A stretch of 64,000 bases of DNA from Candidatus Omnitrophota bacterium (GCA_041650935.1 JBAZKH010000004.1:5040-69039); one strand, 5' to 3'. Shown: positions 30,129 to 62,288, counted from the first letter of the stretch. The notes: generated by a model not told the origin, from the letters alone. Translations and numbers: made by a program.

Positions 30129-30163
30129 AATAGTGTAGCCTATGTAATAATGTCATGGCAATC

Positions 30164-30191
30164 TGCAGGGCACACTTAAGTGTGCCCTGCA
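30164..30191. repeat. Palindrome family C copy 1: tgcagggcacacttaagtgtgccctgca.
   Basis: A perfect 28-nt palindrome between the OMP and SBP genes, preceded by aatagtgta...gtaataat. It is related to 47121-47152. Confidence 0.6.
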
Positions 30192-30208
30192 AAATTAGAG
30201 GGCCTTTT

Positions 30209-33878: not shown

Positions 33879-33910
33879 TTGCCGGGTGAATTCACCCGGC
33901 AAATTTTTTT
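33879..33910. repeat. REP family A copy 2 (ttgccgggtgaattcacccggcaa) plus a T7 run. It acts as the terminator for the GH94 gene and contains the RAYT stop codon.
   Basis: The palindrome is at 33879-33902 and TTTTTTT at 33904-33910. On the minus strand the RAYT reading frame ends ...KKFAG-TGA inside the REP. Confidence 0.7.
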
Positions 33911-34969: not shown

Positions 34970-34989
34970 ACCTGAGGAGCAGACTAATA

Positions 34990-44043: not shown

Positions 44044-44056
44044 CCTTTGCTTTCTC

Positions 44057-44077
44057 CCCGGCAAGAAGCTTGCCGGG
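44057..44077. repeat. REP-A-related hairpin cccggcaag-aag-cttgccggg, with the REP-A arms in swapped order.
   Basis: A 9-bp stem with a 3-nt loop, 14 nt after the ORF3 stop. The arms are identical to those of REP-A but arranged as at a REP-REP junction. Confidence 0.5.
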
Positions 44078-44088
44078 ATAAGCCTGTA

Positions 44089-44097
44089 TGGTATAAT
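44089..44097 (+). promoter_or_regulatory. Extended -10 TGgTATAAT, giving a leaderless transcript for the response-regulator gene.
   Basis: TATAAT at 44092-44097 with TG at 44089-44090. The ATG at 44104 is 7 nt downstream, so the TSS falls at or near the A of the ATG. No RBS is possible. Confidence 0.4.
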
Positions 44098-44103
44098 ATC
44101 CCT

Positions 44104-44787: not shown

Positions 44788-44811
44788 CAAAATCCGAATG
44801 ACAAATTAATC
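44772..44811 (+). promoter_or_regulatory. Conserved direct-repeat element, copy 1: gtgataatgacaaatgacaaaatccgaatgacaaattaatc. It spans the response-regulator stop codon.
   Basis: 35 of 41 positions are identical to 63513-63552. Three TGACAAA half-sites at about 14-nt spacing. An inverted copy tttgtcattg lies at 44825-44834. The element sits between the response-regulator and kinase genes. Confidence 0.4.
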
Positions 44812-44860
44812 ATTAAATATCAAATTTGTCATTGAACACCGTATTCTTGGGCAAAAATAT

Positions 44861-46470: not shown

Positions 46471-47091
46471 ATGGTTAAAAAGCTTGTATATATAGCTATG
46501 CTCATAGCTATGGTTTGCGCTATGGCGCTGCCGTCGGCAAATGCCGCCGATAAGGCCGCGACAGCAGGTCCCGCGGGCGAGCTTCTTGTTGCGGATTTCG
46601 AGTCCGGGGAGAAGCCGAACAATATCGGCGGTGACTTCGGTGCGTGGAACAAAGATCCCACCGATTTTTCGCAGGGCTGCAGCGAGGCCTTTGACAGTGT
46701 CAACAGGTATGGCACCAAAGGATTCGCCATGAAGCTCGAATACAGCGTTGAATCCAAGAATCCCGCATATAACGGATTCTGGATGTTCCTTCAGAACCTG
46801 GATGCTACAAAGTACGATAACGTAGCGTTAAGGGTAAAAGGTGATGCGAAGACCGGTTATACCACGGTATTCAAAATCGAGCTTAAGAACGCGGCGAAGC
46901 AGGTCGGCCGTTATTATGTAACAAACATAACGGACCAGTGGCAGGATATCGTGATCCCGCTCAAAGAGTTCAAGGGTATCACCGACTATTCTAACCTCAC
47001 AGAGTTTGTAATCGTCTTTGAAGACAGGATTGCCTCCAATAAGAAGGGCGTAATCTACATCGACGATATCAGATTCACGAAGAACAAATAA
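46471..47091 (+). CDS. Secreted stand-alone CBM-like β-sandwich protein.
   Basis: RBS GGGGGAGGG. Signal peptide MVKKLVYIAMLIAMVCAMALPSANA. The body is collinear with the N-terminal domains of the 47199 and 57517 proteins (...LEYSV...NGFW...VKGD...KIE...WQ...IPL...VIYIDDIRF). Confidence 0.7.
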   Translation: MVKKLVYIAMLIAMVCAMALPSANAADKAATAGPAGELLVADFESGEKPNNIGGDFGAWNKDPTDFSQGCSEAFDSVNRYGTKGFAMKLEYSVESKNPAYNGFWMFLQNLDATKYDNVALRVKGDAKTGYTTVFKIELKNAAKQVGRYYVTNITDQWQDIVIPLKEFKGITDYSNLTEFVIVFEDRIASNKKGVIYIDDIRFTKNK

Positions 47092-47152: not shown

Positions 47153-47198
47153 AATGTGCAGAAAGATAGCTACGTACTACCTCTGTAAAAGGATAGCA

Positions 47199-49460
47199 AT
47201 GAAGCGCATAGCCGCTCTTATACTACTCTTCGGACTGATCCTAGATATACCATCATCCGCATCCGCGCAGAATAAAGCGCAGAAATTCGTTGCACCCATT
47301 ATTGTAAGCGATTATACAGACGGGACAATTACAAACTCTCTCGGCGGCATATCCGGCGGGAAAGAGACGCTGCCGGGTGTGCTCTACGCCGCGGCCACTC
47401 CCGATGAGTGCTCTACGCGCGGCGCTTCGGGTTATTCGCTGCAGCTCGATTATGATGTCTCTAAGCTAGGAGAATACGCGTTTTACTGGATGAAGCTCGG
47501 CGGGGAGATACCCGGCCGCGATAAGGCCACAAAGACGCTCGACCTGACCGGTTATAGTTACATTACCTTCTGGGTGAAGGGCGCGCAGGAGGGCGGAGAC
47601 CTGAAGATAGAACTCCATCAGGATATAGACGCTAACGGCATCTTCGAATTCGGCAAGGATATTACAAGCTGCGTATACGCCAAAGGCTACCTTAAGAGCG
47701 GCACCATTACCAAAGAGTGGCAGAAGCTCGTGATACCGTTAAAAAATTTTACTTTAATTACAGACTGGAAACGGATCCTGGAATTTGTCATTGTCCTTGA
47801 GAACAAAGCGGGCAATGCGGCGGGAACGGTATATATAGACGATATCCTTTTTGGTTACAGGCCGGCCGATGTTTTGGAGAGCCTGGGCACAGAGGATCTG
47901 AAAGCCCCGGCGGAATCTTCTTTCACGGTGAACGGCGTCAATTCCAAAAGATGCGCCGCGTTTGCCGGCACCACAACGCTGGCTATAAAAGCGGAAGATG
48001 TAAATAACAACCCGTTCATCGAAAGCGTCAGGTTTGAGTATTCGGTGGACAAGGGCGCGAACTGGCGGATCATAGGCTGCGATTACAACGTCTCCAAGAA
48101 CGTATATAAAGTAGAGTGGCAGCCCGATAATTCCAGACAGCTTTACAATTATGAAATAAGGGCCGTTGCTTCCAGCGTGGGAGGCGTCGAAAAGGCCACG
48201 GGCGTCCTGATAGACTGTCCCGTCAAGCCGATAACGGACGATGAGTTCCTGGACCTGGTCGAGCGTAAAGCGTTCGACTTCTTCAAGGACCACCAGAATC
48301 CGGTTACAGGCCTCTTCGCCGATACATCCGGCGGCGGGGACGCGAGCATCGCCTCGACCGGTTTTGGCATGGCGGCTCTTTGTGTCGGCGCCCAGCGGGG
48401 TTGGATCGACAAGAAGGAAGCTAAGGCGCGCGTCCTTACGGCGCTGAACATGTTCCTTCCCAAAGGACCGGAGGCCGAACCGCTTGCCGACGGAAGATAC
48501 GGTTTCTTCTACCATTTCCTGAATGCGCATAACGGCAAAAGGGCCGGCAGGAGCGAGATATCGACCGTCGATACCGCAATACTGGTTGCCGGGGCGCTCA
48601 CCGCGGGTGAATATTTCGGCCAGGACGTGAAAGCCAGGGCGGAAGAGATATATAAACGGGTCGAGTGGGAAAAATTTTTGTGTACAACGAAAGGCGGATG
48701 GTATAACTGTTATTCGATGGGATGGTCGCCCGAGAGAGGGTTCCTCGATTCTTACTGGGATTATTATACGGATGAAGTTGTACTCATAACGCTCCTTGCC
48801 ATAGGTTCCCCGACCCACCCCGCGCCGCCGGATGTTTTTTACGCGTGGGCCAGGAACAAAGATGCTTATAAGGACGGGAAACCGTTTATCTACAGCTGGC
48901 ATGGCAGTCTCTTCTCTTATCAGTATGCCAATATATGGTTCGATTTCCGCGGCATAGCCGACAAACAGGGTGTGAACTGGTTCGAGAATTCGACGAACGC
49001 GACATTGGCAAACAGACAATTTTGTATCGATAATGCCGACAAACTTAAAGGCATGGGCCCGAATATGTGGGGGATAACTTCGATGTCCAGGCCGGAGGGT
49101 TATACAATGCATTTCGGCGTCCCCCCTACGGGAAACGGCGAACCCGAATACGACAACACCGTATCGCCCACAGGGCCGGCCGGGTCGATCGTATTTACGC
49201 CGTATCTTTCGTTGTCGGCCCTGAAGCATATGTACCTGACATATCCGAGGCTCTGGGGCCAGTATGGGTTCAGGGATTCGATCAATGCCGGACGCAGCTG
49301 GTACGCCTTTACATATTACGGTATAGGCGAGGCGATGATACTTCTGCCGATAGAGAATTTCCGTTCCGGATTTATCTGGAAGAATTTTATGAAGAATACG
49401 TATATAAAGGATGCGCTTACGAAAGCCGGTTTCACCAAGGCGAAAGGGGCACTAAAGTGA
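47199..49460 (+). CDS. Secreted CBM-like domain + Ig-like linker + DUF3131/GH144-like glucanase-like domain.
   Basis: ATG at 47199 with RBS AAAAGGA. The track's ATG at 47154 is inside the palindrome. Signal peptide MKRIAALILLFGLILDIPSSASA. C-terminal motifs STVDTAILVAGALTAGEYF, YQYANIWFDFRG and YGFRDSINAGRSWYAFTYYGIGEAMILLPIEN. Confidence 0.8.
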   Translation: MKRIAALILLFGLILDIPSSASAQNKAQKFVAPIIVSDYTDGTITNSLGGISGGKETLPGVLYAAATPDECSTRGASGYSLQLDYDVSKLGEYAFYWMKLGGEIPGRDKATKTLDLTGYSYITFWVKGAQEGGDLKIELHQDIDANGIFEFGKDITSCVYAKGYLKSGTITKEWQKLVIPLKNFTLITDWKRILEFVIVLENKAGNAAGTVYIDDILFGYRPADVLESLGTEDLKAPAESSFTVNGVNSKRCAAFAGTTTLAIKAEDVNNNPFIESVRFEYSVDKGANWRIIGCDYNVSKNVYKVEWQPDNSRQLYNYEIRAVASSVGGVEKATGVLIDCPVKPITDDEFLDLVERKAFDFFKDHQNPVTGLFADTSGGGDASIASTGFGMAALCVGAQRGWIDKKEAKARVLTALNMFLPKGPEAEPLADGRYGFFYHFLNAHNGKRAGRSEISTVDTAILVAGALTAGEYFGQDVKARAEEIYKRVEWEKFLCTTKGGWYNCYSMGWSPERGFLDSYWDYYTDEVVLITLLAIGSPTHPAPPDVFYAWARNKDAYKDGKPFIYSWHGSLFSYQYANIWFDFRGIADKQGVNWFENSTNATLANRQFCIDNADKLKGMGPNMWGITSMSRPEGYTMHFGVPPTGNGEPEYDNTVSPTGPAGSIVFTPYLSLSALKHMYLTYPRLWGQYGFRDSINAGRSWYAFTYYGIGEAMILLPIENFRSGFIWKNFMKNTYIKDALTKAGFTKAKGALK

Positions 49461-51235
49461 AAAAGATAACGTTAGCGGTTTTAGCGATAGTACTCGCGGC
49501 AACGGCCTTCGCAGCCGAGCCGGCAAATTTCGACGATGAACTTGCCCGCATAGCTCATGCCGATTCCGACGCAGCCATAATGAAGATCACCGAAGAGGCG
49601 ATCGCGAAATGCGCGGCGGCGGCGGATTTCGAAAAACTTGCCTTGAGCATAAAGAATTTCGTTTCCGAGAAGTCCGATTTCAAGTATTCGAACGCGTTAT
49701 ATTATGCCATCGCAAAGACCAGGATAGACGAGCTCACGTTCCTTTCCCAGAAGAATGACATAGAATCCGGCAGGCTCTATATGTCCCTGAACGAAAGTTA
49801 CCGCATCGAGGCGGCCGATTATATCGATAAGGTGCTCGGTAACGCGAAATCGAAAGACCTCGCCCTGGACGCGTATCTCCTGAAGTTCCTTACGATAAAG
49901 GATGAATTCCAGCCGCAGAGGACGGAAGCATTCCTAGATGAGATGGCGGATAGGATCGCGAAATATTCCGACGACGGCGCGCTCAACAGGCGCCAGCTCT
50001 CGCGCATAGCGGGTGAATTGACGGATAAGGGGTCCGGTAATTATGCCATGAAGTTAAGGATCTCGTATGCTCAGAAGGTCGACCCGAAATCGGCCCAGGA
50101 GGTATTGGAGGATATACGCAGGGACGGCGACAAAAGCTTTGCTCAAGGCAACATGAGGGGCGCCGCCGCGTTATACGATACGTACATAAATTCGGCGCAG
50201 TCATATTTCAATAAAGAGGCCATGGGCGCCAAGGTCATGGAGATAGCGGAGCGGTACTTCGGTTCCAACAGGTACCGCGATGCGAGAAAATATTATGAGC
50301 TGTTTGCGCAGGGCTATCCGGATTCCAAAGTCATAGATTACTGCAAATATAAGACGGCGCTCTGTTATTGCTATGAGAAGGATTATGCCAATGCTGTTGC
50401 TAACCTCGAAAGTTTCCTGGGGACTTACCAGAATTCCGTATGGTTTGACCGCGCCTTCGAGACGCTTTGCCGCATATATTTCGGCGAATTCCCGAAAGAG
50501 AAAGCCGCTGCCGGGCTCCAGAAACTGATCGACAATTATTACCGGAAGAATATAGGCGATTACGCTTATCTGCTCCTGGGGGCTCTCTATTACTCGGACA
50601 AAGAGTATGACAAAGCGGCCGAGTACCTCAAGAAAGTGGATATCAACAGCGTCTATTCGTACGCGGCCGAGATATTAAGCGCCGATATAAAAGATATAAA
50701 GAACGGCAGCAACCCTTCGTATAGTTTCGGCGGGAAAGATAAATACAGGATGTGGGAACCGGGAAAGCCTAGTAAAATAGATATGGTTCCTATGGCGGCC
50801 GGGGACGCGAGCGCGTGGATTAAAGGCGGCGGCAAAGGCGAGGACAAGAAACTGGAAGTTACTTATAACGAGGCCGGGGCCGCGCAGATTACAGTCCCGC
50901 CCGGCACTAAGGTAAAATTCGCTCTCTCTACGCTTATAGACGACGACCGCTTCGCAGAATATCTGCAGGATAAAGAGGATTTGAGCAGGCTTCCCAAGAA
51001 GGTAAAAGATGAGGACGAAAAAGATTTCATTGCGCTCCAGTGGAAGAGTGAGGGCGGGCGGTTTGTAGATGAGAGACAAACAAGGGACAAGATATGGCAG
51101 GCTCCGGATGAACCGGGCGCCTATAAGATATCTGTCCTTGCCGACGACCTGGGCCTTGTCCGCACACCTGATAAAGGTGTAAGAAAGGACCCGGCCAAGG
51201 AAGTCGCAATTATCGTGAATGTCGTAAAATCATAG
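49457..51235 (+). CDS. Secreted TPR-like repeat protein.
   Basis: GTG at 49457 overlaps the upstream TGA (GTGA), with RBS AAAGGGG. Signal peptide VKKITLAVLAIVLAATAFA|AEP. Helical repeats (...YYELFAQGYPDSKVIDYCKYKTALCYCYEKDYANAVANLESFL...). Confidence 0.7.
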   Translation: MKKITLAVLAIVLAATAFAAEPANFDDELARIAHADSDAAIMKITEEAIAKCAAAADFEKLALSIKNFVSEKSDFKYSNALYYAIAKTRIDELTFLSQKNDIESGRLYMSLNESYRIEAADYIDKVLGNAKSKDLALDAYLLKFLTIKDEFQPQRTEAFLDEMADRIAKYSDDGALNRRQLSRIAGELTDKGSGNYAMKLRISYAQKVDPKSAQEVLEDIRRDGDKSFAQGNMRGAAALYDTYINSAQSYFNKEAMGAKVMEIAERYFGSNRYRDARKYYELFAQGYPDSKVIDYCKYKTALCYCYEKDYANAVANLESFLGTYQNSVWFDRAFETLCRIYFGEFPKEKAAAGLQKLIDNYYRKNIGDYAYLLLGALYYSDKEYDKAAEYLKKVDINSVYSYAAEILSADIKDIKNGSNPSYSFGGKDKYRMWEPGKPSKIDMVPMAAGDASAWIKGGGKGEDKKLEVTYNEAGAAQITVPPGTKVKFALSTLIDDDRFAEYLQDKEDLSRLPKKVKDEDEKDFIALQWKSEGGRFVDERQTRDKIWQAPDEPGAYKISVLADDLGLVRTPDKGVRKDPAKEVAIIVNVVKS

Positions 51236-51295: not shown

Positions 51296-54200
51296 ATGAT
51301 CGAGTGCTGCAGAAAAAAATGTTTTTCCCTGTTGATCCCGGTTATTTTACTAACTGTCTGCGCCACGGCCGCGTTTGCCGATGAGGGCCGCCGGTCCTCG
51401 ATCGTGACGGACCCGACCGGCTTCAGTATCCTGGAGGCCGGTGAAAAAGGCATGTTCAACATGGGGCCTGCCATGGGCGATGTGACGAGCGAGCGCGAAG
51501 AATTTATCAATAAAGACGTCCTGAAATTCGATTACACAATATTTGGCGGCGCGATAGTCGGCGTATGGACGAAGAGTTTTCCTCCGAGGCTGGGACCGAA
51601 GCTGGTTGACGCTGTGAGGATCGGCGTAAAAATTTCGACGAAAGAACAACTGCGCCAGATATCGGTAAAGGCGGAGATAAAAGGCAAGAATGCCGTCCAG
51701 ACGATACCGCTGCGTCTTGAAAATGGATGGATACATGTGCGTGAGGCGGTCGACTGGAACAGGATAGGCGCTCTCAATGAGGCTGTATTTGTGGTCAGCC
51801 CTATGGTAACGAATAAGAAGCTCGATGGGATCATCTATTTTGAGCTCGATTTCTACAAGATGACATTTCTGGAGAAGCGCCTTGCCGCAATAAAGGACGT
51901 TATAGTCCTGGCGCTGGCGCTTTTCTTAATTTTGGCAGCCGGATTTTTAGGCAGGCTATTCGTCCGGAAAAGCGGCGATGGCCGTGCGGTGTCGGGCATC
52001 AAACGGGATTTCCTGTACGGTATAACAGCCGTCTTGATCGCAAGCGCCGGTCTCGGTATATATGCCATGGGAATGGAGAACCCCCTCAATACCGGCCTTC
52101 GTTTCGATTTCGTGATAATTGCGTTCCTGGGTCCGGCAATAGCAGAAATTTTTAAACGCGGCCTCACCGGAAGACACCTCACACCCGGTGAAGTTTTTCA
52201 GAATGTTTTAATCTCGGGTTTCCTTGCCGCCGCTTCAAGCAGGATGACTCTCTTGCAGGCCCCTTCTTCATGGGTCCAGCTTATCATGTTCAATAATTTT
52301 GCGGCAGCCCTTACCTTTATAATATATCATGCGGCCAATGGGCGGGCGCTTGCAGTGCATGGTAAACACTTAAGGCCTATTACCGTAGCGCTTATCGGCG
52401 GAACGCCGTATATATTCAACTGGCTTCTTCTTCTGGAAAGTTCCGGCATTGTGGAGGCTATCGGTAACGCCTTTACTTTCGGCATATGGGTATACTGGTC
52501 TGATATATTACAGAATATAGGAAGGTTTATAGTAATATTCGTCTTTAACGAAATCATCGCCAACGGTATCAGTCTTGCGTTGAGGGAGAGGGTGCTCAAA
52601 CCCGCAAAGGCCCATATAGCCATCTTTTTGGTCTCCGTGGGCGTTGTGATAGCCCCGATTATTGCCGACCTCGGCTCGACAGCGGCGATAGCGTCGCTGC
52701 CGGCATTCCTGAAGGCTGTCGCGTGTATCCTGACAAGCATGCTGTCTTTCGGCGGTCTATGGGCGGAGGTCTACCTGATCACCGGAATGTTTCTGGATAG
52801 CGGGAAACTTATAGCGCCCTCGGCCGAAACATTGGTGAGGCATGTAAACGCCGGCACGAAGAAGGGTATGGCATTCAGCGCGATTGTGATGGCGATCCTC
52901 TTTGCGCTTAGCATGGTGATCGCGGCGCCGATATCGCAAAAAGTAATTAGCGGGATACCTCTTGTGATCGGGATTATAGTCGGAGCTATCATCTTCCCGT
53001 TTGCCAAGACTATTATGGAGACCTTCGACGGCAGCCTGCCGTTTTTCGAGAGGACGCGTTACAGTTATAAAGACGTGTCATTATATGCCAGAGGCGCAGT
53101 CGTAGGATTCGGCTTCGCCTACGCCCTTAGTAAGGGTATGGTGGGCCGCCCGATGGGCGACAGGGTCCTCTTCGGTTTTATCATAGGTATCTTGTCGTCC
53201 GGCGGGGTGAGTTTCCTGAGAGATGTGGTCTGGGCCTTTAAAGGCCAGGGCCGCGTCCACACCTGGAAGCTCTATTTCGTCGATTCCATATTCGGCGCGT
53301 TTATAGGGAGCGCCGCGGCGTTCTATATGGACGCCCTGCAGGTCCCGGTTATCGTCGATAAATTTAAACTCTATGTAAGTTCCGGATTCCAGGCGATGGA
53401 GTACATAACCTACCCGCTTATCAATAACAATAAATGGGGCAATATAAACCTCGGCGCCTATACCGGCGGAGTGAAGCTGTTGTATACAGAGTCTTTGGCC
53501 GGCGTCATCAACTGGTCGATCGCGGCATGGCTCTTTGCCATAAACAAAGTCTTTATGCAGGCGTATTTCGAGAAAGACAAGACGCCTATAAAATTCTTCT
53601 TCTCGAAGGCAGGATTTGCCCAGCTCGTCGAGCACATGATATATGTTTTGCGGTGGGGCCTCTGGATGTCGCCGATCATATTTACCGGGTTGCGCATGAT
53701 GCCCGACCCGACGTGGTATAACCAGGACGGAGCCATCCGCACCATCTTTGCCACCTTCAATAATATTACTATGTCGCCGGAGGGTTTCAGGCAGTGGAGC
53801 CTGCAGGTATTTATATGGATAATGGCCTTCGATTTCTTCCGGGTACTTATCTGGATGGACCATATGGGACTGCGTGTCGCGACGCTGGTCAATTTGAGCT
53901 TCCTCGGCCTCGACAGGCTCGATGAGAAACTGGCCAGGTTCATAGGCCCGGCCGCGGCACAGAGATATATTCCCGACGCCGTCAAGCGCTTCGCGACATG
54001 GGCGCCGCTCTTGATTCCTTTTTATATTCCGCGCGGCAGGGAGTGGGACCAGGTGTGGGATACTTCGCAGGCGATGCAGAATGCGGCTATGTCCAGGAAG
54101 GGAATGGTTGCCGTGTTCCAGGATTTTCCGGCCCTTGAAAAAATACTTATCCTCGCAGGAGCAGTGATCCTATTTACCGCCGTCTCGTTCGGCGTGCGCG

Positions 54201-57200
54201 CCCTGCACCGCCGCCGCAAGGCCCGCAGCGGTGAGAGTTACGAGATGTCCAACATGGAATACAGGGTGATACTTAGAAATACCGGGGAGATATTCAGCGA
54301 GGGTATTCACAAGGAATGCGACGTGACCAGGCGCTCTTACGACCCGATGGACCCTTGCGGAAGGATACTCTTTATTATGGATGCGGCCGAGAAACCCGAT
54401 AGCGCAAAACGCTTCTGGCCGGTCGTCGGAAATTTCCCGCAAGGCAAATTCGAGGCCTCTTCTATCGAAAAGAAGGCAGATGCCTTCAATATCCTCAATA
54501 CATCCAACGGTATCAGGACGACCGTAAAGATCGGCCTGCCCGACAAAGAGAGCACGGTGGAGATATGGGAAGTTACCGTAGAGAATACGACGGATAAGGC
54601 GCGCCGGATCAAAGTTGTGCCGTATCTGGAATGGGTGCTCGTCGGAGGGATTCACGACAGGTTCCATACGCAGTACGCAAGGTTATATCCCGAGATGGAG
54701 TATGCGGCCCAGGCCAACGCTATCCTCGCTTATCAGAAGAGCGCTAAGACGATGGGACTATTGGCGAGCGATATTCCGCCGGAAGGTTTTCTTACTTCAC
54801 GCATCGATTTTATCGGCCGGAGCCGGAGTATCTGGTCGCCGCGGATCGCCCAGACTATGGATTTCCTGGGAGCCGGGGATACGAACCCTTATCCGACGTT
54901 CGATCCGATAGGGAGCCTTGCGGTAAATGCGGAATTGCAGGCCGGGGGTTCTATAAAGATGCGTTTTGCAATAGGTTTTACAAAGAATAGGAAGATGGCG
55001 CTCGAGATGATAACAAGGTTCCTGAAGCCGGCTGTGTCCAAGGCGGCTGTTGCGCCGGAGAAGAAGAAAGAGCTTTTGATAGGCCACGGCGAGATCCCCC
55101 CGGGGACGCCGCAGCCGTACTCGACATTTACCGATAACGGCAGGCGGCTCGTCGTCCATACGCCGTTTACGCCGCGGCCGGTCGATCATGCCGTGTCGAA
55201 TGCCATACATTCCATAATGGTCACCAACCGCGGCCTTCACACGTCGTCCAACGGCAATTCACAGCAGAACCGCCTGACGCCGGATTGGCCGGATATAGTT
55301 ACAAAAGAGATACCGACCGAGGCGTTCTATCTATACGACCCGGACGCCAAAGAGTGGTATTCGCCGACCTATCTTCCGCTCGCCGATGGCAGCGCGAAGA
55401 ACGAATCGGAGTTCGGCGTGGACGGGACGGCAGTCTTCCGCATGTCCCGCGGGGACATTGCGACGGAGCTGACGGTATTCGTTCCGCCGGATGATCCCGC
55501 AGGCATCTATCTATTAACGATAAGGAATAACGCAAAACGCGAAAAGCGCCTGCGTATCGTGCCGTATTTCCAGATGGTTCTGGGGTTCCAGCCCGAAAGA
55601 GCGGGTCCTCTGGTGATGCGTTACGATAAGACATTGCAGACACTCTTCTTCTCTAACCCGCGCAACATCTTCCGTACAGGATGGGCCTTTGTCTCCACAT
55701 CGATGCGGCAGGTGCGCGTAGAGACGAATCGCGGCAGATTTTTCGGCAAGGGACGCGATGTTGTGCATCCGTTCATGGTCAAGGAAGGCTCGCCGGACAG
55801 GAAACAATCCGGCGATGAGTCGCAGGTGGCATCTTTCTTAAGCGAGGTGCGGATACCAGCCGGAGGAGAATATACGCTCGCGGTCGTTATGGGACAGACC
55901 GACGAATGCAAGGACGCGCGTAAGATCATCGAGAAGTATAAAGACCTCGACGCCGCGCGTAAGAGCCTTGAGGATACAAAGAAGTGGTGGTTAAGTCTCA
56001 TGGGAACGCTAGAGGTCCAGACCAACTCTCCGGAGTTCGACCGTTACCAGAACTGGCTTAAATACCAGGCTCTCGCGGAGCGCATATGGGCCCGCCGGGG
56101 TTTTTACCAGACGAGCGGCGCTTACGGTTTCAGGGACCAGCTGCAGGATACCGTGAATCTTATATGGGTCGATCCGGCCCTGGCGCGCAAGCAGATAATA
56201 TTACATGCCTCTCAGCAGTTTATCGAAGGCGACGTATTCCACTGGTTCTTTACATTGACAGACGGCCGTACTGCATTTTCGTGCCGGTCGCATGCCTCCG
56301 ATAACCCGATATGGCTGGTATGGGGCGTTGCGGAGTATATAAAAGCAACGGGGGATTCGTCGATCCTGGACGAGATGGCTTCGTACGTGGTATCGCAATT
56401 CCCGTTTGCAAAGCTTCCCAAGAATAAACAGGGATGGGGCCACCTGTATCACAGGACGACCCGCGCGGATACTGTCTACAGACACTGCGTAAAGTCGCTC
56501 GACCTCATACTGAATGATCGTATGGGCAAGAACGAACTGCCGCTTATCCAGACCGGCGACTGGAATGACGGTCTCGACGAGATAGGCAGCGAGGGGCGGG
56601 GCGAGAGCGTATGGCTCGGCTTCTTCCTATATTATATATTGAGGGACATGCTCGGTGTGATCGAGCTAAAAGAAGGCCCGAAACGCAGGGCGCATTACGC
56701 TGCCAGGATGGAGGCGCTAAAAGCCGCTTTAGAAAAGACATGGCGCTCGGACCGTTACCTCAGGGCGATCCATGACGACGGCACCGAGATCGGCATAAAA
56801 GGCAGCGGCGTCTGGGAGATAGACGCGCTTACCGCGTCGTGGGCCGTCATGAGCGGTATAAATTTCGAAAGGGGCCTTACGATATTCAATACCGCCCTTA
56901 GCATTCTTGAAAAAGATAACGCGATACTTTTGGGATGGCCCGCCCTGCGCGAAGATACCAAGCCGTATCTCGGCCGCTCGAGCAAGTACCCCGAAGGCGT
57001 CCGCGAGAACGGCATGTATTGCCATGGCGTCCAGTGGCTCGTAAAGGCCGCGAGGATCCTGGCGGAAGAATTCGACAAGAGAAATCAGGCCGCCGAAGCG
57101 GATGAGTATAGAAAGACCGCTTACAGGCTCTGGCTCAAGGTCTCGGCGATCCCGCGCGTAAAAGAGATGGAACTCTACGGGGGACAGCCGAACAAACAGT

Positions 57201-57430
57201 CCGCCGATATACTCACTACCTTCGACCGCGGCCGCATGATATGGCACGGTTATACCGGCGCTGCCGGATGGATGCTGCGCCAGGCTTTTGAAGGCGTCGT
57301 CGGTGCGTCGCTTGTCAAGAATGAGCTCATCCTGCCCAAGGACCTCGATAAGCCAAGAGGCGACCTTAAGGTAAAGAGCGTGCGCCGCGACATAACGAAA
57401 AGCCCGATCAAAGATCTGAAACCCTGTTAA
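51296..57430 (+). CDS. Giant membrane protein (2,044 aa): signal peptide + CBM-like domain + large polytopic membrane region + C-terminal GH94 domain. It is like the cyclic-β-1,2-glucan-synthase C-terminus, but lacks a recognisable GT84 domain.
   Basis: Signal peptide MIECCRKKCFSLLIPVILLTVCATAAFA|DEG. About 700 residues of stacked TM helices. C-terminal YGFRDQLQD (56122-56150) and GDWNDG (56554-56571). Confidence 0.85.
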   Translation: MIECCRKKCFSLLIPVILLTVCATAAFADEGRRSSIVTDPTGFSILEAGEKGMFNMGPAMGDVTSEREEFINKDVLKFDYTIFGGAIVGVWTKSFPPRLGPKLVDAVRIGVKISTKEQLRQISVKAEIKGKNAVQTIPLRLENGWIHVREAVDWNRIGALNEAVFVVSPMVTNKKLDGIIYFELDFYKMTFLEKRLAAIKDVIVLALALFLILAAGFLGRLFVRKSGDGRAVSGIKRDFLYGITAVLIASAGLGIYAMGMENPLNTGLRFDFVIIAFLGPAIAEIFKRGLTGRHLTPGEVFQNVLISGFLAAASSRMTLLQAPSSWVQLIMFNNFAAALTFIIYHAANGRALAVHGKHLRPITVALIGGTPYIFNWLLLLESSGIVEAIGNAFTFGIWVYWSDILQNIGRFIVIFVFNEIIANGISLALRERVLKPAKAHIAIFLVSVGVVIAPIIADLGSTAAIASLPAFLKAVACILTSMLSFGGLWAEVYLITGMFLDSGKLIAPSAETLVRHVNAGTKKGMAFSAIVMAILFALSMVIAAPISQKVISGIPLVIGIIVGAIIFPFAKTIMETFDGSLPFFERTRYSYKDVSLYARGAVVGFGFAYALSKGMVGRPMGDRVLFGFIIGILSSGGVSFLRDVVWAFKGQGRVHTWKLYFVDSIFGAFIGSAAAFYMDALQVPVIVDKFKLYVSSGFQAMEYITYPLINNNKWGNINLGAYTGGVKLLYTESLAGVINWSIAAWLFAINKVFMQAYFEKDKTPIKFFFSKAGFAQLVEHMIYVLRWGLWMSPIIFTGLRMMPDPTWYNQDGAIRTIFATFNNITMSPEGFRQWSLQVFIWIMAFDFFRVLIWMDHMGLRVATLVNLSFLGLDRLDEKLARFIGPAAAQRYIPDAVKRFATWAPLLIPFYIPRGREWDQVWDTSQAMQNAAMSRKGMVAVFQDFPALEKILILAGAVILFTAVSFGVRALHRRRKARSGESYEMSNMEYRVILRNTGEIFSEGIHKECDVTRRSYDPMDPCGRILFIMDAAEKPDSAKRFWPVVGNFPQGKFEASSIEKKADAFNILNTSNGIRTTVKIGLPDKESTVEIWEVTVENTTDKARRIKVVPYLEWVLVGGIHDRFHTQYARLYPEMEYAAQANAILAYQKSAKTMGLLASDIPPEGFLTSRIDFIGRSRSIWSPRIAQTMDFLGAGDTNPYPTFDPIGSLAVNAELQAGGSIKMRFAIGFTKNRKMALEMITRFLKPAVSKAAVAPEKKKELLIGHGEIPPGTPQPYSTFTDNGRRLVVHTPFTPRPVDHAVSNAIHSIMVTNRGLHTSSNGNSQQNRLTPDWPDIVTKEIPTEAFYLYDPDAKEWYSPTYLPLADGSAKNESEFGVDGTAVFRMSRGDIATELTVFVPPDDPAGIYLLTIRNNAKREKRLRIVPYFQMVLGFQPERAGPLVMRYDKTLQTLFFSNPRNIFRTGWAFVSTSMRQVRVETNRGRFFGKGRDVVHPFMVKEGSPDRKQSGDESQVASFLSEVRIPAGGEYTLAVVMGQTDECKDARKIIEKYKDLDAARKSLEDTKKWWLSLMGTLEVQTNSPEFDRYQNWLKYQALAERIWARRGFYQTSGAYGFRDQLQDTVNLIWVDPALARKQIILHASQQFIEGDVFHWFFTLTDGRTAFSCRSHASDNPIWLVWGVAEYIKATGDSSILDEMASYVVSQFPFAKLPKNKQGWGHLYHRTTRADTVYRHCVKSLDLILNDRMGKNELPLIQTGDWNDGLDEIGSEGRGESVWLGFFLYYILRDMLGVIELKEGPKRRAHYAARMEALKAALEKTWRSDRYLRAIHDDGTEIGIKGSGVWEIDALTASWAVMSGINFERGLTIFNTALSILEKDNAILLGWPALREDTKPYLGRSSKYPEGVRENGMYCHGVQWLVKAARILAEEFDKRNQAAEADEYRKTAYRLWLKVSAIPRVKEMELYGGQPNKQSADILTTFDRGRMIWHGYTGAAGWMLRQAFEGVVGASLVKNELILPKDLDKPRGDLKVKSVRRDITKSPIKDLKPC
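51390..51860 (+). other. CBM-like β-sandwich at the ORF4 N-terminus.
   Basis: ...VLKFDYTIFGGAIVGVWTKSF...AVRIGVKIS...IIYFELDFY follows the pattern of the other CBM-like domains in this window. Confidence 0.3.
54240..57430 (+). other. GH94 (glycosyl transferase family 36-type) phosphorylase-like domain of ORF4.
   Basis: Collinear with the 31495 GH94 protein: the N-terminal β-sandwich ...YRVILRNTGE..., the (alpha/alpha)6 core with FRDQLQD, and the catalytic DWNDG loop. Confidence 0.6.
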
Positions 57431-57516: not shown

Positions 57517-59565
57517 ATGAAGATTATTGCGAGAATTATCGTATTAAGCATGCTCTTGGCCGCTATAGACTCACCTTTGGTATTTTGCGAAAAAGATACT
57601 GCGAAAGAACCTTCCTATATAGTAATAGCCGATTTTAGCAATCCCCATCTGATCAATAATCTTAACGGCGAATCCGGCACATGGGAAAAGAATCCCGAGG
57701 ATAGATCGCAGTGGATAACTGCGTCGATCGACGATGTGACCCGCCGCGGCGAATCCGGGTCCTCGCTGAAACTGGAGTACAGCGTTGCTTCGCCCAATGA
57801 TGCGGTCAATGGTTTCTGGACGCAGCTCAGGGATTTCGACGCCTCGGGTTATGACCATTTCGAGTTTTGGGTAAAGGGGGACGAGAAGAGAGGATTTACA
57901 ACGACTTTCAAGATTGAATTTAAAAAATTCCAGAAGAGCTGGGTAGACCAGGCGGAAGAGACGGTTACCGGTACATATATAGTGAAGGGCGTTACATCCG
58001 AATGGCAGAAGGTATCGATTCCTCTGAATGTAATGAGCGGCATATCGGATTGGAAGGGCATGAGAGAGATGGTGATAAGCTTCGAGCGGAAGCGCATAAA
58101 TTCGCTCGAAGGCACTTTGTATTTCGACGACTTCGCTTTTGTCCGCACAGGTAACCCTGGCCCCGGTATAAATGATATAGTCGCGCACAAAAAGCAGAAG
58201 GCGGACATCCCTCTGGAGACGGAGGAGTTTGCCAGGTTCCTCATAGCGCGCCTGGGCGGATTTCCCGCCAAGGTCTTCGTCAAGAAAGAGTTTCCCAGGA
58301 CGGACACGGCGTTCCTGAAAGAGATTGCCAGGGATACGTGGAAATACTTCGATCTCATCGTCGACAAACAATACGGCCTGCCGCTCGATTACATAAAGTT
58401 TAATGAAACCATGACCGTTTCGAAAGATACCCGCGTCGGGGACTACACAAGCGTTACCGATATCGGCCTTTACCTGATGTGCGTAATATCCGGCTATGAC
58501 CTGGGTTTTATTACGAAAGAGGAGGCCGTCAGGCGTCTTGGCCTTACGCTCGCTTCCATAGAGAATCTTGAAAAGTATCATAATTTTCCATATAACTATT
58601 ATGATATTACGATCTTCCAGCGGACAAGCAACTTTATATCTTACGTCGACAGCGGATGGCTTGTTGCCGGTATCATCGTCACAAAGAACGCGTTTCCGAA
58701 GGAACTCGGCGCGCGGTGTCAAAAACTGATCGACAGCATAGATTTCGCCTTTTTCTACGATCCCGTGGAAGAAGAGATGTATCACGGTTTTTACACAAAT
58801 ATCGATTATTATTCGGAATACCATTACGGTGCGTTTTATACTGAGCCCAGGGCAGTGAGTTATATAGCTATAGGCAAAGGAGACGTTCCCAAACAGCATT
58901 GGTTTTCGCTCGACAGGACTATTCCAGAAACGTGGTATTGGCAGACGCAGAAACCCAAGAACAGGAAAGAGAAGACCTATCTTGGCTGTAAGACGATGGG
59001 CGGTTATTATGAATATGAAGGCGCGAAGTTCGTCCCGAGCTGGGGCGGGAGTATGTTCGAGGCGCTTATGCCGACGCTTATATTAGAGGAAAGACGCCTT
59101 GCGCCGAAAGGACTGGGACTTAACGATGAGGTCCATGCGCGGATACAGGCCAAATACGCGCTCGAGAAACTGAACTATCCCGTCTTCGGCATGTCGCCGT
59201 CGTGCGTGCCTGCCAACGGGTATTCGGAATACGGCGTAAAGCTTCTGGGCATGAAAGGGTATAAGACGGGTGTCGTTACGCCTCACGCCTCTTTTTTAGC
59301 GCTCGAATTCATCCCGAAAGAGTGCATTAAAAACCTGCGCACGATCCTGGCAAAATATAATGCCTACGGCGAATACGGCTTTTATGATGCGATAGATGTC
59401 AATACCGGTAAAGTTGCCGTAGAGTATCTCTGTCTCGACCAGGCGATGTCGCTGGTCGCTATAAATAATTACCTCAATAACGGCGCCATCCGCAAAAGGT
59501 TCCACGCCGACCCCATAGCCAAGAAAGCCGAAGAACTGCTCAAAATCGAAAAAATCTTCGAATAG
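57517..59565 (+). CDS. Secreted CBM-like domain + DUF3131/GH144-related six-hairpin glycoside-hydrolase-like domain.
   Basis: Signal peptide MKIIARIIVLSMLLAAIDSPLVFC. The N-terminal domain is collinear with the 46471 protein (...LEYSV...NGFW...VKGD...KIE...WQKVSIPL...TLYFDDFAF). C-terminal ...TSVTDIGLYLMCVISGYDLGF... and ...YGFYDAIDVNTGKVAVEYLCLDQAMSLVAINNYL parallel the GH144-like proteins. Confidence 0.75.
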   Translation: MKIIARIIVLSMLLAAIDSPLVFCEKDTAKEPSYIVIADFSNPHLINNLNGESGTWEKNPEDRSQWITASIDDVTRRGESGSSLKLEYSVASPNDAVNGFWTQLRDFDASGYDHFEFWVKGDEKRGFTTTFKIEFKKFQKSWVDQAEETVTGTYIVKGVTSEWQKVSIPLNVMSGISDWKGMREMVISFERKRINSLEGTLYFDDFAFVRTGNPGPGINDIVAHKKQKADIPLETEEFARFLIARLGGFPAKVFVKKEFPRTDTAFLKEIARDTWKYFDLIVDKQYGLPLDYIKFNETMTVSKDTRVGDYTSVTDIGLYLMCVISGYDLGFITKEEAVRRLGLTLASIENLEKYHNFPYNYYDITIFQRTSNFISYVDSGWLVAGIIVTKNAFPKELGARCQKLIDSIDFAFFYDPVEEEMYHGFYTNIDYYSEYHYGAFYTEPRAVSYIAIGKGDVPKQHWFSLDRTIPETWYWQTQKPKNRKEKTYLGCKTMGGYYEYEGAKFVPSWGGSMFEALMPTLILEERRLAPKGLGLNDEVHARIQAKYALEKLNYPVFGMSPSCVPANGYSEYGVKLLGMKGYKTGVVTPHASFLALEFIPKECIKNLRTILAKYNAYGEYGFYDAIDVNTGKVAVEYLCLDQAMSLVAINNYLNNGAIRKRFHADPIAKKAEELLKIEKIFE

Positions 59566-59665: not shown

Positions 59666-60610
59666 TTGACGAAATTAAAAAGTTCTGAAAAAGAAGCTAT
59701 CTCCGGATACCTGTTCATCCTTCCGAATTTTTTAGGGTTCCTTGTCTTTACTCTTCTGCCGGTCATATTCTCTCTGGTCTTCAGTTTCGTCAGGTGGGAC
59801 CTGCTCTCCGCGCCGGTATTTATCGGCTTCAGTAATTTCATAAGTCTTCTCGGGTTCCATAAAGAGGGGGCGGGCTGGATTGCCAACGATCCGCTATTCT
59901 GGAAGTGTTTCGGCAATACTCTTTACCTTATGATGATAATCCCCCTGGAGATAATGGCCTCCCTTATCGTTGCGCTCGTCATGAACCATAAAATGAAAGG
60001 CATGAACTTTTTTAAGACCGTCTTTTTCCTGCCCACGATCACGAACGGCGTTGCTATATGCCTTTTGTGGTACTGGATATATAATACGGATTTTGGGTTG
60101 ATAAATACCGTGATGGTAAATGCCGGCAGAGCGCTTGGCATACATATAAACGGCATCCCGTGGCTCACTTCTACGCTGTGGTCCAAGCCGTCTTTGATGA
60201 TGATGGGACTGTGGATAATGATCGGCGGCTACAACATGATCCTGTTTCTTGCCGCGCTGCAGGGGGTGCCGAGAGAGCTTTATGAAGCTGCGGAGATAGA
60301 TGGGGCGGGTTCATGGGAGAAGTTCTGGTCGATAACGTGGCCCATGATAAGCCCGACAACCTTTTTCGTCACGATAATGGCCGTTATAGGCGGGTTCCAG
60401 GGCGGGTTTATGCAGGCCTATATAATGACGGGCGGCGGACCGGAATATTCGACTACTACGCTCGAGTACCTGATATACAACCATCTCTATAGCTGGCATA
60501 ACGTCGGATATGCCGCCGCCATAGCGTGGTTTGTCTTTATAGTCATATTTTTAGTGACGCTGTTCAACTGGCGGTTCGGCGGCAAGCTCGTACAATATGC
60601 GCATTATTAA
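59666..60610 (+). CDS. Carbohydrate ABC transporter permease (MalF/UgpA-like).
   Basis: TTG start with GGAG 9 nt upstream. Six TM helices. The EAA loop ...LYEAAEIDGAGSWEKFWSITWP... Confidence 0.8.
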   Translation: MTKLKSSEKEAISGYLFILPNFLGFLVFTLLPVIFSLVFSFVRWDLLSAPVFIGFSNFISLLGFHKEGAGWIANDPLFWKCFGNTLYLMMIIPLEIMASLIVALVMNHKMKGMNFFKTVFFLPTITNGVAICLLWYWIYNTDFGLINTVMVNAGRALGIHINGIPWLTSTLWSKPSLMMMGLWIMIGGYNMILFLAALQGVPRELYEAAEIDGAGSWEKFWSITWPMISPTTFFVTIMAVIGGFQGGFMQAYIMTGGGPEYSTTTLEYLIYNHLYSWHNVGYAAAIAWFVFIVIFLVTLFNWRFGGKLVQYAHY

Positions 60611-60627
60611 GGGCATGAGGGATAACG

Positions 60628-61512
60628 ATGCGTGATGAAGTCTCGCTGGCTAAAAGGGTAAGACATTCGAACGCGCGGAAGACCTTTAAGAAGGTCTTCA
60701 TGTATCTTTTCCTTATAGCCGGCGGCATTACTATGGTACTGCCTTTCCTGTGGATGGTATCGACGTCGCTTAAATCGAACAATTCCATCTTCGCTTTCGA
60801 CATGACCAGTATACAATGGGTACCACGGCCGGTATACTGGCAGAATTATTTTGATGTTTGGAAAGTCGTGCCGTTCGCGCGATTTTACATCAACAGCATA
60901 TTTGTATGCGTCGTTGTCACGTTCGGCCAGGTCGCGACGAGCGCCCTGGCGGCATACGCGTTCGCGCGGCTGAAGTTCCCCGGCAGGGACAAGCTCTTCT
61001 TCGCGTATCTGGCGACTATGATGATCCCCGGCTCGGTGACGATGATACCGGTATTTACCATGATGAGCGTATTCGGCTGGATCGACAGCTATAAGGCGCT
61101 TATAATACCGGCCATATTCTCTGCTTACGGGACGTTCCTCCTGCGGCAATTCTTCATGACATTACCGCGCGACCTGGAAGACGCCGCCAAGATCGACGGC
61201 TGCAGCCTGTGGGGGATATTCTGGCGTGTCATACTCCCGCTTTCGCATACGGCGCTGGCAACGCTTACGATATTCGTTTCGCTCGGCAACTGGGTGAGCT
61301 TTATGTGGCCGCTGCTCGTCACGAATTCGATTGAGAAGAAGACACTGCCGATAGGGCTGGCGTATTTCCAGGAACTCTACCAGTATGCGCAGCCGGAGTG
61401 GGGGCTTTTGATGGCGGGCTCACTCATAACGATGGTTCCTATAATCATAATATTCCTCTTCAACCAGCGTTTCTTTATCGAGGGGATCAAACTTACGGGA
61501 ATGAAAGGATAA
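60628..61512 (+). CDS. Carbohydrate ABC transporter permease (MalG/UgpE-like).
   Basis: RBS GAGGG 6 nt upstream. The EAA loop ...LEDAAKIDGCSLWGIFWRVILP... Six TM helices. Confidence 0.85.
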   Translation: MRDEVSLAKRVRHSNARKTFKKVFMYLFLIAGGITMVLPFLWMVSTSLKSNNSIFAFDMTSIQWVPRPVYWQNYFDVWKVVPFARFYINSIFVCVVVTFGQVATSALAAYAFARLKFPGRDKLFFAYLATMMIPGSVTMIPVFTMMSVFGWIDSYKALIIPAIFSAYGTFLLRQFFMTLPRDLEDAAKIDGCSLWGIFWRVILPLSHTALATLTIFVSLGNWVSFMWPLLVTNSIEKKTLPIGLAYFQELYQYAQPEWGLLMAGSLITMVPIIIIFLFNQRFFIEGIKLTGMKG

Positions 61513-61529: not shown

Positions 61530-62288
61530 ATGAGTAAAATTGTTGAGACTATGACAAATCCGTTTAAAAAAGAACGCGTCCGCGCGTCCGCCCAGGAAGA
61601 GATCGCGAAGATATACCTTAAGGTTTCCGACAAGAGTAAAAGTAAAAAAGAGCGGGTGGTGTCGAAATTTCCATGGCTCGTTGCGGCAGCGGCAGTTGTT
61701 ATCGCGCTTGCGACGCTTCTATTCAAGAGTAATATAGATGTCAGGATAAGGATACTGGGCGAGATACCGTCGATCGGTTTCGAGGGTACCGACAAATTCG
61801 GCAGTCTTCGCGAAAAAGGCCTGTATCTGGTCAGGGGCAGCGAGCTTAATACGTACCTGGTCAAGAACGCCGATTTTACCGGTGATGCGCGGACCTTCAG
61901 CAAAGCCGGCGACGGCGCGCTCATCCTGTGTAATTCGAGGGGCAGCGGCTGGGCGAATTACGAGATATCCATGAGAGATCCTGTAAATTTGCGCAAGCTC
62001 GATCTTAAGTATATGGCTAAAGGCGGCGCCGGTGACGAGTACCTTACTGTAGTCATAGTCGATTCCGACAACAGGTCGTACAGGATAGAGAAAGATATAG
62101 TTTCGAAATTGTCGAAAGATTGGCGGCCCTATACTATAAATTTTAAACCTTTAAGCAACGCCATAGACCTGGCGAATATAATAAAGGTAAGGTTCGAATT
62201 CGGGACATTGACGGCGGGAAACAGTTCTACGTCGACACTTTTTTTAAAAGATGTATGTGTCGTTAAAACCAAGAGGATGGGGCTATGA
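61530..62288 (+). CDS. Membrane-anchored protein with an extracytoplasmic CBM-like β-sandwich.
   Basis: A single TM FPWLVAAAAVVIALATLLF after a charged N-terminus. C-terminal ...GWANYEISM...YLTVVIVDSD...WRPYTINF...IKVRFEFG...LFLKDVCVV. The start is uncertain: the alternative is the ATG at 61551, and the track's 61398 overlaps the permease. The stop overlaps the ROK gene's ATG. Confidence 0.5.
   Translation: MSKIVETMTNPFKKERVRASAQEEIAKIYLKVSDKSKSKKERVVSKFPWLVAAAAVVIALATLLFKSNIDVRIRILGEIPSIGFEGTDKFGSLREKGLYLVRGSELNTYLVKNADFTGDARTFSKAGDGALILCNSRGSGWANYEISMRDPVNLRKLDLKYMAKGGAGDEYLTVVIVDSDNRSYRIEKDIVSKLSKDWRPYTINFKPLSNAIDLANIIKVRFEFGTLTAGNSSTSTLFLKDVCVVKTKRMGL

Follow-up and report, generated by a model that had tools for sequence, protein, structure and literature searches.

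What does a sugar phosphorylase do when it is built into one polypeptide with a very large membrane domain? This question is raised by a gene of a Candidatus Omnitrophota bacterium (GCA_041650935.1), which lies at 51296..57430 on the + strand of a stretch of 64,000 nucleotides (JBAZKH010000004.1:5040-69039). The whole stretch is called the window, and positions are counted from its first nucleotide. To our knowledge, the known enzymes of glycoside hydrolase family GH94 are all either soluble or part of cyclic β-1,2-glucan synthase (Cgs), and literature searches found no paper on a GH94 fused to a membrane region apart from Cgs. The family of this gene shows a third GH94 arrangement: a Cgs-type phosphorylase in permanent linkage with a membrane domain that is large and strongly conserved.

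The gene is an intact open reading frame (ORF) with an ATG start and a GGAGAG ribosome-binding site (Shine-Dalgarno) 6-7 nt 5′ of the start. It encodes a fusion of a carbohydrate-binding module (CBM), a membrane domain and GH94 with a length of 2,044 aa. The protein is identical to the deposited MFA5143659.1 (WC522_05800, "hypothetical protein", Candidatus Omnitrophota bacterium), whose gene lies on a 178-kb contig. The GH94 domains were the sole Pfam matches of the protein: residues 1-960 matched no Pfam family even at E ≤ 1, no glycosyltransferase (GT) family was found in the protein at this threshold, and NCBIfam gave no match.

Domain structure of the fusion protein

The phosphorylase module comprises three parts. 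The first GH94-type supersandwich, GP1 (aa 978-1245, 54227..55030), is predicted to be cytoplasmic. It is followed by the second supersandwich, GP2 (aa 1276-1533, 55121..55894), and by the (α/α)6 catalytic domain (aa 1564-2003, 55985..57304), all on the + strand. PF06165 matched in two stretches, one of them GP1 and the better one at aa 1293-1533 (E 2e-67), and PF17167 matched at aa 1564-2003 (E 4e-59); both scores were far above the gathering threshold. The motifs FRDQLQD and GDWNDG were located at aa 1612-1618 (nt 56129-56149) and aa 1754-1759 (nt 56555-56572). The clear C-terminal GH94 domain that the original prediction had recognised by FRDQLQD and DWNDG is thus confirmed by both Pfam families and by the motif positions.

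Among all PDB sequences, the best phmmer match of the fusion protein was the Cgs of Agrobacterium tumefaciens (8rf9/8rf0; 371 bits, E 1e-110). Two stretches were aligned, aa 977-1245 with Cgs 1537-1805 and aa 1276-2014 with Cgs 2032-2759, showing that the homology of the C-terminal half to Cgs includes the extra first supersandwich GP1. Cellobiose phosphorylases reached 128 bits against the 371 bits of Cgs, and LpSOGP (5h3z) was matched marginally (E 0.005); the Pfam families SOGP_N, SOGP_2nd and SOGP_4th (PF21958, PF21250, PF21270) had no match in the fusion protein. The family profile (A1), searched against the PDB sequences, retrieved GH94 proteins only, through its GP1 end, and matched Cgs at 1527-1682.

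The GP module of Cgs begins at residue 1536 and is divided into the subdomains GP1-3, with D2393 and D2528 as active-site residues (PMC10901819). The alignment (chain numbering +19) showed that D2393 is the Asp of FRDQLQD and D2528 the second Asp of DWNDG; both are kept in the fusion protein. Both Asp motifs were invariant in 53/53 full-length relatives, in which YCHG, TGAAGW and GQPNKQ were also invariant or nearly so. By comparison with the structures of cellobiose phosphorylases, the Arg of RDxxQD, the His of YxHG and the Thr-Gly of TGAAGW, all in conserved motifs, may be phosphate-site residues. The doubt that the GH94-like region might lack the catalytic Asp does not apply, because both Asp motifs are present. 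Only ~30 residues part GP1 from GP2 (1245 to 1276), against ~225 in Cgs (1805 to 2032), indicating that the RFL insert, which occupies Cgs 1847-2012 between GP1 and GP2 (PMC10901819), is absent.

Because the match to Cgs is strong, that to cellobiose phosphorylases far lower and that to LpSOGP marginal, and because the catalytic motifs are kept, the enzyme module belongs to the Cgs clade of GH94 and appears to be catalytically competent. The fusion protein is a bona fide member of GH94. We infer its β-1,2 specificity from the closeness to the Cgs GP and from the SGL-clan and SOGP neighbours described below.

The N-terminal half has a different composition. A Sec-type signal peptide was read from the sequence at aa 1-28 (51296..51379), with a hydropathy peak at aa 16-22 and a probable cleavage site between AFA and DEG. 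It is followed by a CBM11-like β-sandwich, predicted to be extracytoplasmic (aa ~40-190, 51413..51865), and by a polytopic, all-helical membrane domain (aa 191-977, 51866..54226). A signal peptide, a CBM-like sandwich and stacked hydrophobic helices had been proposed for this half, and the sequence, the structure models and Foldseek all agree with this description.

Two AlphaFold2 (AF2) models were made. The model of residues 1-1000 was based on an alignment of 63 sequences and reached a mean predicted local distance difference test score (pLDDT) of 84.5 and a predicted template modelling score (pTM) of 0.84. The second model covered residues 190-980 alone (pLDDT 85.1, pTM 0.85). Long helices span residues 196 to 977. 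The membrane domain of ~790 aa has 14 clear transmembrane (TM) helices, several less hydrophobic or membrane-associated helices, and a last TM helix at 946-977. In both models, a hairpin at 701-722 was the sole beta element of the membrane region, so that no GT-A/GT2 fold is hidden there. The absence of GT84 and GT2 stated in the original prediction agrees with the Pfam search and with the models, which are all-helical over 191-977 and contain no α/β Rossmann-type insertion.

Foldseek showed no relative of the membrane domain in the PDB. The model of residues 1-1000 matched nothing except the CBM sandwich, and the membrane-only model gave no match at E ≤ 1e-3, the best being a KATP subunit (E 0.07, prob 0.14, TM score ~0.09, rmsd 35 Å). 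Cgs (8rf0/8rf9), BcsA-type synthases, GT-C enzymes, and MOP, MFS and ABC transporters were not retrieved from the PDB by Foldseek. No recognisable sequence family or fold of known translocases or membrane glycosyltransferases (GT2, GT-C, MOP/Wzx/MurJ, ABC, MFS) was matched, phmmer and the family profile found no relative among the PDB sequences, and hhalign detected no internal repeat. A resemblance to transporters or flippases had been considered for this region; modelling and structural search gave a large helical region with no PDB match by Foldseek or sequence profile. By these searches, the membrane domain belongs to no described family, and its relatives are detectable only within its own family.

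The topology was derived from alignment-averaged hydropathy and Lys/Arg counts mapped on the AF2 helices. Along TM1-TM14 (196-677), short Lys/Arg-rich loops alternate cleanly with Lys/Arg-poor ones. The Lys/Arg-rich loops, such as 222-234, 287-296, 353-360, 429-436, 500-523, 577-594 and 644-659, were placed on the cytoplasmic side. Hydrophobicity is lower in the segment 680-945, whose number of membrane crossings is uncertain. The final TM helix (946-977) is followed by the positively charged RALHRRRKAR and then by GP1. Because the loop charges alternate over TM1-TM14 and RALHRRRKAR comes after the last TM helix, the positive-inside rule predicts that the CBM lies outside and the GH94 module in the cytoplasm, the site of phosphate and glucose-1-phosphate (Glc-1-P).

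The best-conserved stretch of the protein is aa 700-935 (53393..54100), where the column conservation was 0.75-0.84, compared with 0.5-0.65 elsewhere in the N-terminal 1,000 aa. Its motifs are RWGLWMSPII (786-795), PTWYNQDGAIRT (805-816), DHMGLRVATLVNLSF (855-869) and RFATWAPLLIPFYIPRG (898-914; RFxTWAPLLIPFYIPRG). Invariant polar or aromatic residues were also found inside the TM helices and at their two ends, namely N418/E419, W489/E491/Y493/T496, E575/D578, D643 and Y677/D679/Q682. Such residues would fit a sugar or ion pathway.

In the model of residues 1-1000, the strands of the outer β-sandwich cover aa 50-187 with a pLDDT of ~90. Its best Foldseek matches in the PDB were the CBM11 structures 6r3m/1v0a (E 8e-5 to 1e-4; TM score 0.57, target-normalised). 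The number of CBM copies differs among the 129 full-length members of the family: there is no copy in 20 members (median length 1,833 aa), a single copy in 77 (2,050 aa) and a pair in 32 (2,288 aa).

Distribution of the family and the Lentisphaera variant

When one genome of each GTDB species was scanned, 204 species proved to encode the membrane domain, and the best 80 of the 204 loci were fetched. These 80 are mostly from Omnitrophota; the others are labelled Planctomycetota (including Isosphaeraceae), Elusimicrobiota, Auribacterota, Chlamydiota, FCPU426 and Desulfobulbales. When the parts of the protein were searched separately by tblastn, the membrane domain was found in 80 of these loci, GP1 in 77, GP2-3 in 71 and the CBM in 71. 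The membrane domain, GP1 and GP2-3 share their reading direction in every locus whose contig extends far enough.

A profile search of 5.8 billion proteins gave 172 members. An exhaustive HMMER search returned 910 cluster representatives with E<1e-3. Those with E<1e-30 numbered 337, and all of the 337 were GH94-linked or fragments. Other domain combinations of the conserved 700-935 module were seen only as fragments or chimeras among the weaker matches of this search. Homologues with the same architecture, a fusion to Cgs-type GH94, thus occur in at least 204 species. Three shorter, high-GC homologues on contigs of 122-382 kb (P0008, P0009 and P0012) were considered as GH94-less variants and rejected. 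Soon after GP1 they run into Arg/Pro/Gly-rich ends, which were read as frameshift products, apparently of assembly errors or in pseudogenes, instead of a truly shorter architecture.

A different form was found in a cultured bacterium, Lentisphaera araneosa HTCC2155. Its LNTAR_18013 (1,262 aa) combines two CBMs with the membrane domain and a degenerate GP1 and lacks the GH94 catalytic domain; the Lentisphaera type is the genuine GH94-less variant. The gene starts 10 nt after a separate SOGP-type GH94 gene (PF21958, PF21250, PF17167, PF21270), and the order of the operon is MFS_2 symporter, SOGP-type GH94, LNTAR_18013, a 629-aa protein with no assigned function and a PF10091 protein. The membrane domain is thus paired with both GH94 clades acting on β-1,2-glucan, with the Cgs type by fusion and with the SOGP type by adjacency in L. 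araneosa. The adjacency in L. araneosa is a second association with β-1,2-glucan phosphorolysis, independent of the fusion. Since the Lentisphaera version has no phosphorylase catalytic domain, the membrane domain is predicted to have a function of its own, for which no catalytic domain has to be linked to it covalently.

The 629-aa protein of L. araneosa is 39% identical (E 8e-155) to "cl9", whose gene comes right after the fusion gene in loci of Planctomycetota and Desulfobulbales. The cl9 proteins are secreted, measure 630-720 aa and are encoded directly 3′ of the membrane-domain gene in three phyla (L081 13792..15681; also L065, L069, L073, L075, L077 and L080). The identity of 39% was observed between Lentisphaera and Isosphaeraceae. 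The cl9 proteins belong to no Pfam family and matched no PDB sequence. No link between cl9 and the SGL clan was found by BLAST, hhalign, Pfam or PDB sequence search, and only its C-terminal part weakly resembles the CBMs of the locus. The cl9 proteins may be a new glycoside hydrolase family.

Gene neighbourhood and proposed function

About 8-18 of the 80 loci share the gene order that the window shows around the fusion gene. The genes described here lie on the + strand unless stated otherwise. Pfam identified a two-component system (44047..46336) with a response regulator at 44047-44787 and a histidine kinase at 44861-46336, which is syntenic with the locus in close relatives (L002, L005, L007, L012, L054 and L071). 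It is followed by a secreted stand-alone CBM11-like protein of 206 aa (46471..47091; PF03425, E 4e-7) and by a secreted 768-aa protein with a signal peptide, a CBM and a domain homologous to GH144-like β-1,2-glucanases (47154..49460; PF10091, E 4e-60). The best PDB matches of the 768-aa protein were XCC2207 (8xul, E 9e-67) and CpSGL (5gzh, E 4e-42). A protein with TPR matches and a signal peptide is encoded at 49457..51235. The mechanical ORF of this gene starts at GTG 49067 and overlaps the upstream gene by ~390 nt; the true start is probably GTG 49457, which gives a 4-nt overlap with the upstream stop and is followed by the signal peptide MKKITLAVLAIVLAATAFA.

Downstream of the fusion gene lies the gene of a secreted 682-aa protein, which has a signal peptide, a CBM and an SGL-clan (α/α)6 domain (57517..59565; PF10091/DUF3131). 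The best PDB match of this protein was the cyclisation domain of TiCGS (8wy1, E 6e-44), and the cyclisation (CY) domain of Cgs was also matched. The fusion polypeptide itself has no CY (GH189) domain, as PF10091 did not match it; the CY-related domain is encoded in this separate gene and carries a signal peptide. Residue roles have been assigned in GH189 (nucleophile E1442, supporting H1536/H1537, acid/base E1356, E1400) (PMC10834661, PMC12102758). In the alignment of the 682-aa protein, the nucleophile E1442 is replaced by Pro and H1536/H1537 by Leu/Asp, and E1356 and E1400 are retained. The GH189-specific helical insertion (chain 142-308 of 8wy1) has no counterpart. The 682-aa protein is more likely to be a glucanase than a cyclase. 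It is a relative of the Cgs cyclisation domain and is placed between GH189 and the GH193-type glucanases. A "split Cgs", consisting of GH94 and an exporter with the product finished by a secreted GH189 cyclase, had been suggested by the match to TiCGS and was down-weighted because the nucleophile is Pro and the GH189-specific insertion is missing.

The CBM11-like modules of the 206-aa protein (46471..47091), the 768-aa protein (47154..~47870) and the 682-aa protein (57517..~58160) are clear paralogues, with 32-40% identity: the 206-aa protein has 40% identity with the N-terminus of the 682-aa protein and 32% with that of the 768-aa protein. Any relationship between these modules of the secreted neighbours and the CBM of the fusion protein is marginal at most. 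Further downstream, two ABC sugar-type permease genes (59666-60610 and 60628-61512; 59666..61512, PF00528) are followed by the gene of a membrane-anchored protein (61530..62288). The C-terminal part of this protein is weakly CBM-like (BLAST E 1e-4 to the 206-aa CBM protein), and it has no Pfam match. A ROK-family protein, regulator or kinase, is encoded at 62285..63511 (PF00480, E 2e-43).

A second glucan sub-locus was found at 27482..33867 (+). It encodes two secreted proteins, one GH144-like (414 aa) and one with no assigned function (461 aa), together with an SBP_bac_1 solute-binding protein (SBP) and a soluble GH94 of 790 aa, which scored 550 bits against the Cgs GP, slightly above its 496 bits against cellobiose phosphorylases. 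The context of the window points more towards breakdown and uptake than towards synthesis: besides three SGL-clan enzymes with signal peptides and a two-component system, it contains an SBP, two ABC permeases and a ROK protein, and GH94 occurs a second time as a soluble enzyme.

The window also contains three giant ORFs at 22..16947, 17070..26666 and 34990..44043 (+), which encode 5,641, 3,198 and 3,017 aa and show isolated central-metabolism domains in otherwise unannotated sequence. These are PEP-utilising enzyme domains at aa 2094-2495 of the 5,641-aa ORF, a cupin-type glucose-6-phosphate isomerase and a weak phosphoglucomutase domain II in the 3,198-aa ORF, and a ROK domain and alanine dehydrogenase/PNT domains in the 3,017-aa ORF. 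Such giant multi-enzyme fusions beside a glucan phosphorolysis locus are unusual. A segment of the 5,641-aa ORF (window 1879..2670) is ~25% identical to cl9 (tblastn E 7e-12). An IS200-like Y1 transposase ORF at 33892..34554 (-) lies beside the sole marked dip in GC content (34001..36000; 0.417 vs ~0.50).

Our preferred reading, a tentative one that falls somewhat short of probable, is that the fusion protein acts as an inner-membrane conduit feeding captured β-1,2-glucan to a cytoplasmic phosphorylase. The outer CBM-like module would capture the β-1,2-glucan, and the membrane domain of ~790 residues would conduct the chain inward, both the conduction and its direction being part of the proposal. 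The cytoplasmic Cgs-type GH94 would then cleave the incoming chain at its non-reducing end with inorganic phosphate and release Glc-1-P inside the cell. The net result would be an uptake coupled to phosphorolysis, an ATP-free "group translocation" of glucan, working beside the secreted SGL-clan glucanases and the ABC oligosaccharide importer.

We propose this reading because carbohydrate modules are predicted on both membrane faces of one polypeptide and because the membrane domain is obligatorily paired with β-1,2-glucan phosphorylases. The CBM number varies between 0, 1 and 2, as is typical of substrate-capturing CAZymes, and the neighbours are of the breakdown and uptake type. The family occurs mainly in uncultivated lineages, largely from groundwater and sediment samples, where ATP-saving phosphorolysis may be advantageous. 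The coupling of GH94 to glucan translocation suggested in the original prediction fits the topology and the strict phosphorylase association in many lineages, while the translocation itself is deduced from these features. It is possible, though doubtful, that the membrane domain, whose modelled fold had no match in the PDB, founds a new polysaccharide translocase family and performs the ATP-free phosphorolytic group translocation of β-1,2-glucan with its GH94 partner.

Several points weigh against the conduit. The topology past TM14 is uncertain, and the AF2 confidence is lowest (pLDDT 50-85) in the best-conserved stretch 700-935. Since an ABC importer is already present in the locus and MFS_2 in Lentisphaera, a second importer would need a rationale, such as the uptake of long chains. 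About 60 of the 80 loci, together with the CBM-less Desulfobacterota-type members, have housekeeping neighbours and no glucan-degrading genes beside them, a setting that is likewise seen for Cgs as a biosynthetic enzyme sufficient in itself. Synthases, too, have secreted glucanases as partners, such as OpgG with OpgH and BcsZ with BcsA, so the glucanases of the locus are no proof of breakdown.

The last two points lead to the opposite direction of transport, which we consider unlikely. The cytoplasmic GH94 would build β-1,2-glucan at the non-reducing end from Glc-1-P by reverse phosphorolysis, or would trim one, and the membrane domain would extrude the chain reducing-end first. The outer CBM and the secreted SGL-clan enzymes would guide or remodel it, in a layout like that of BcsA-BcsB with a phosphorylase in place of the GT2. 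Synthase-translocases such as BcsA-BcsB do have a CBM outside, a channel, and a glycosyl-transfer domain inside, and glucanase partners are known in the synthesis of osmoregulated periplasmic glucans and of cellulose. The GH94 module of the fusion protein is of the biosynthetic Cgs clade, and most family members, like Cgs, stand alone among housekeeping genes. However, cellular ratios of inorganic phosphate to Glc-1-P normally favour phosphorolysis, and no primer or initiation function is evident. Polymerisation of β-1,2-glucan from Glc-1-P by SOGP-type enzymes has been observed in vitro (PMC3960220), which speaks for such an export. The importer parts of the locus (SBP and BPD_transp_1 permeases, with MFS_2 in Lentisphaera), the ROK protein and the second, soluble GH94 speak against it. 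Periplasmic cyclisation of an exported chain is also unlikely, because the cyclase-related 682-aa neighbour has neither the GH189 nucleophile nor the GH189-specific insertion.

It is also improbable that the membrane domain conducts no glucan at all. In this case it would be a membrane enzyme of the outer face, a sensor, or a scaffold holding the GH94 by the ABC or MFS importer, and the GH94 would phosphorolyse oligosaccharides brought in by these transporters. Dedicated importers within the same operons agree with this explanation, as do two-component and ECF sigma/kinase genes close by. The stretch aa 700-935 is moderately hydrophobic and rich in W/Y/D/N/Q motifs, as in a catalytic or binding site, and in Lentisphaera the membrane domain and a degenerate GP1 are kept without the phosphorylase catalytic domain. 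However, ~790 residues with 15-19 helices conserved across phyla are excessive for an anchor, and the output domain typical of sensors is absent. The carbohydrate modules on both faces and the pairing with two β-1,2-glucan phosphorylase clades would be most simply explained by a passage of substrate. An ordinary Cgs with a hidden glycosyltransferase is hardly credible: an RW dipeptide within the conserved motif VLRWGLW could recall one, but no GT family was matched at E ≤ 1, the polypeptide has no PF10091 cyclase domain, the family profile aligns to Cgs from residue 1527 onward only, both AF2 models are all-helical over 191-977 without a cytoplasmic α/β domain, and Foldseek retrieved neither Cgs (8rf0/8rf9) nor BcsA-type synthases.

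Implications and comparison with known systems

Research on β-1,2-glucan has been growing fast since 2014, with SOGP, GH144, GH162, GH189, GH192-194 and the cryo-EM structure of Cgs. If the conduit of our preferred reading does conduct glucan, polysaccharide translocases would gain a new class, and bacteria that are energy-limited and largely uncultivated (Omnitrophota, Planctomycetota, Elusimicrobiota and Lentisphaerota) would have a previously undescribed, ATP-free way to take up a polymer. This would then bear on the carbon supply of host-dependent nanobacteria like the Omnitrophota, for which periplasmic glucans of other bacteria are a possible source. If the direction is export, the protein would be the first phosphorylase-driven polysaccharide synthase. 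The function is experimentally accessible because LNTAR_18013 belongs to a cultured species.

The closest known system is Cgs. The two proteins share the order GP1-GP2-GP3, two supersandwiches followed by the (α/α)6 domain (E 1e-110), with the counterparts of D2393 and D2528 kept. Both have a membrane-tethered phosphorylase, which is predicted to be cytoplasmic in the fusion protein. However, the N-terminal domain, the GT84, the CY/GH189 domain and the RFL insert of Cgs (PMC10901819) are missing from the fusion protein. Instead of the 6 TM helices of Cgs, it has 15-19 helices that are unrelated in sequence and fold, and an extracytoplasmic CBM in addition. The fusion protein is not a Cgs, because 4/5 Cgs-defining features fail and only the GP module is shared. 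The description "Cgs-like" given in the original prediction is right for the C-terminal GP homology and overstated for the rest, since the N-terminal, CY/GH189, RFL and 6-TM features are missing.

SOGP is similar in other respects. Like the fusion protein, it is a GH94 of one chain that carries an additional sandwich at its N-terminus, and a presumed action on β-1,2-gluco-oligosaccharides and a breakdown locus with SGL-type glucanases and sugar importers are common to both. In L. araneosa, a true SOGP gene lies directly before the membrane-domain gene. The differences are the marginal similarity to LpSOGP, the lack of SOGP Pfam families in the fusion protein and the solubility of SOGPs. The fusion protein is not an SOGP as far as its domain content shows. 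The outer module shares the fold of CBM11/CBM30-type β-sandwich modules (CBM11 for aa 50-187) but, unlike them, has no Pfam match.

With BcsA-BcsB and OpgH the resemblance is an analogy of layout only, with a glycosyl-transfer domain inside, a polytopic membrane domain and carbohydrate-binding modules outside. Here the transfer domain is a phosphorylase instead of a nucleotide-sugar GT2, Foldseek found no similarity of fold, and the direction is probably inward. The group translocation of the phosphotransferase system (PTS) differs from the proposed mechanism, in which the phosphate donor would be inorganic phosphate and a polymer would be cleaved stepwise, and there is no homology to PTS components. 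In concept, however, the two would be alike, as in both the sugar would reach the cytoplasm phosphorylated and without direct use of ATP.

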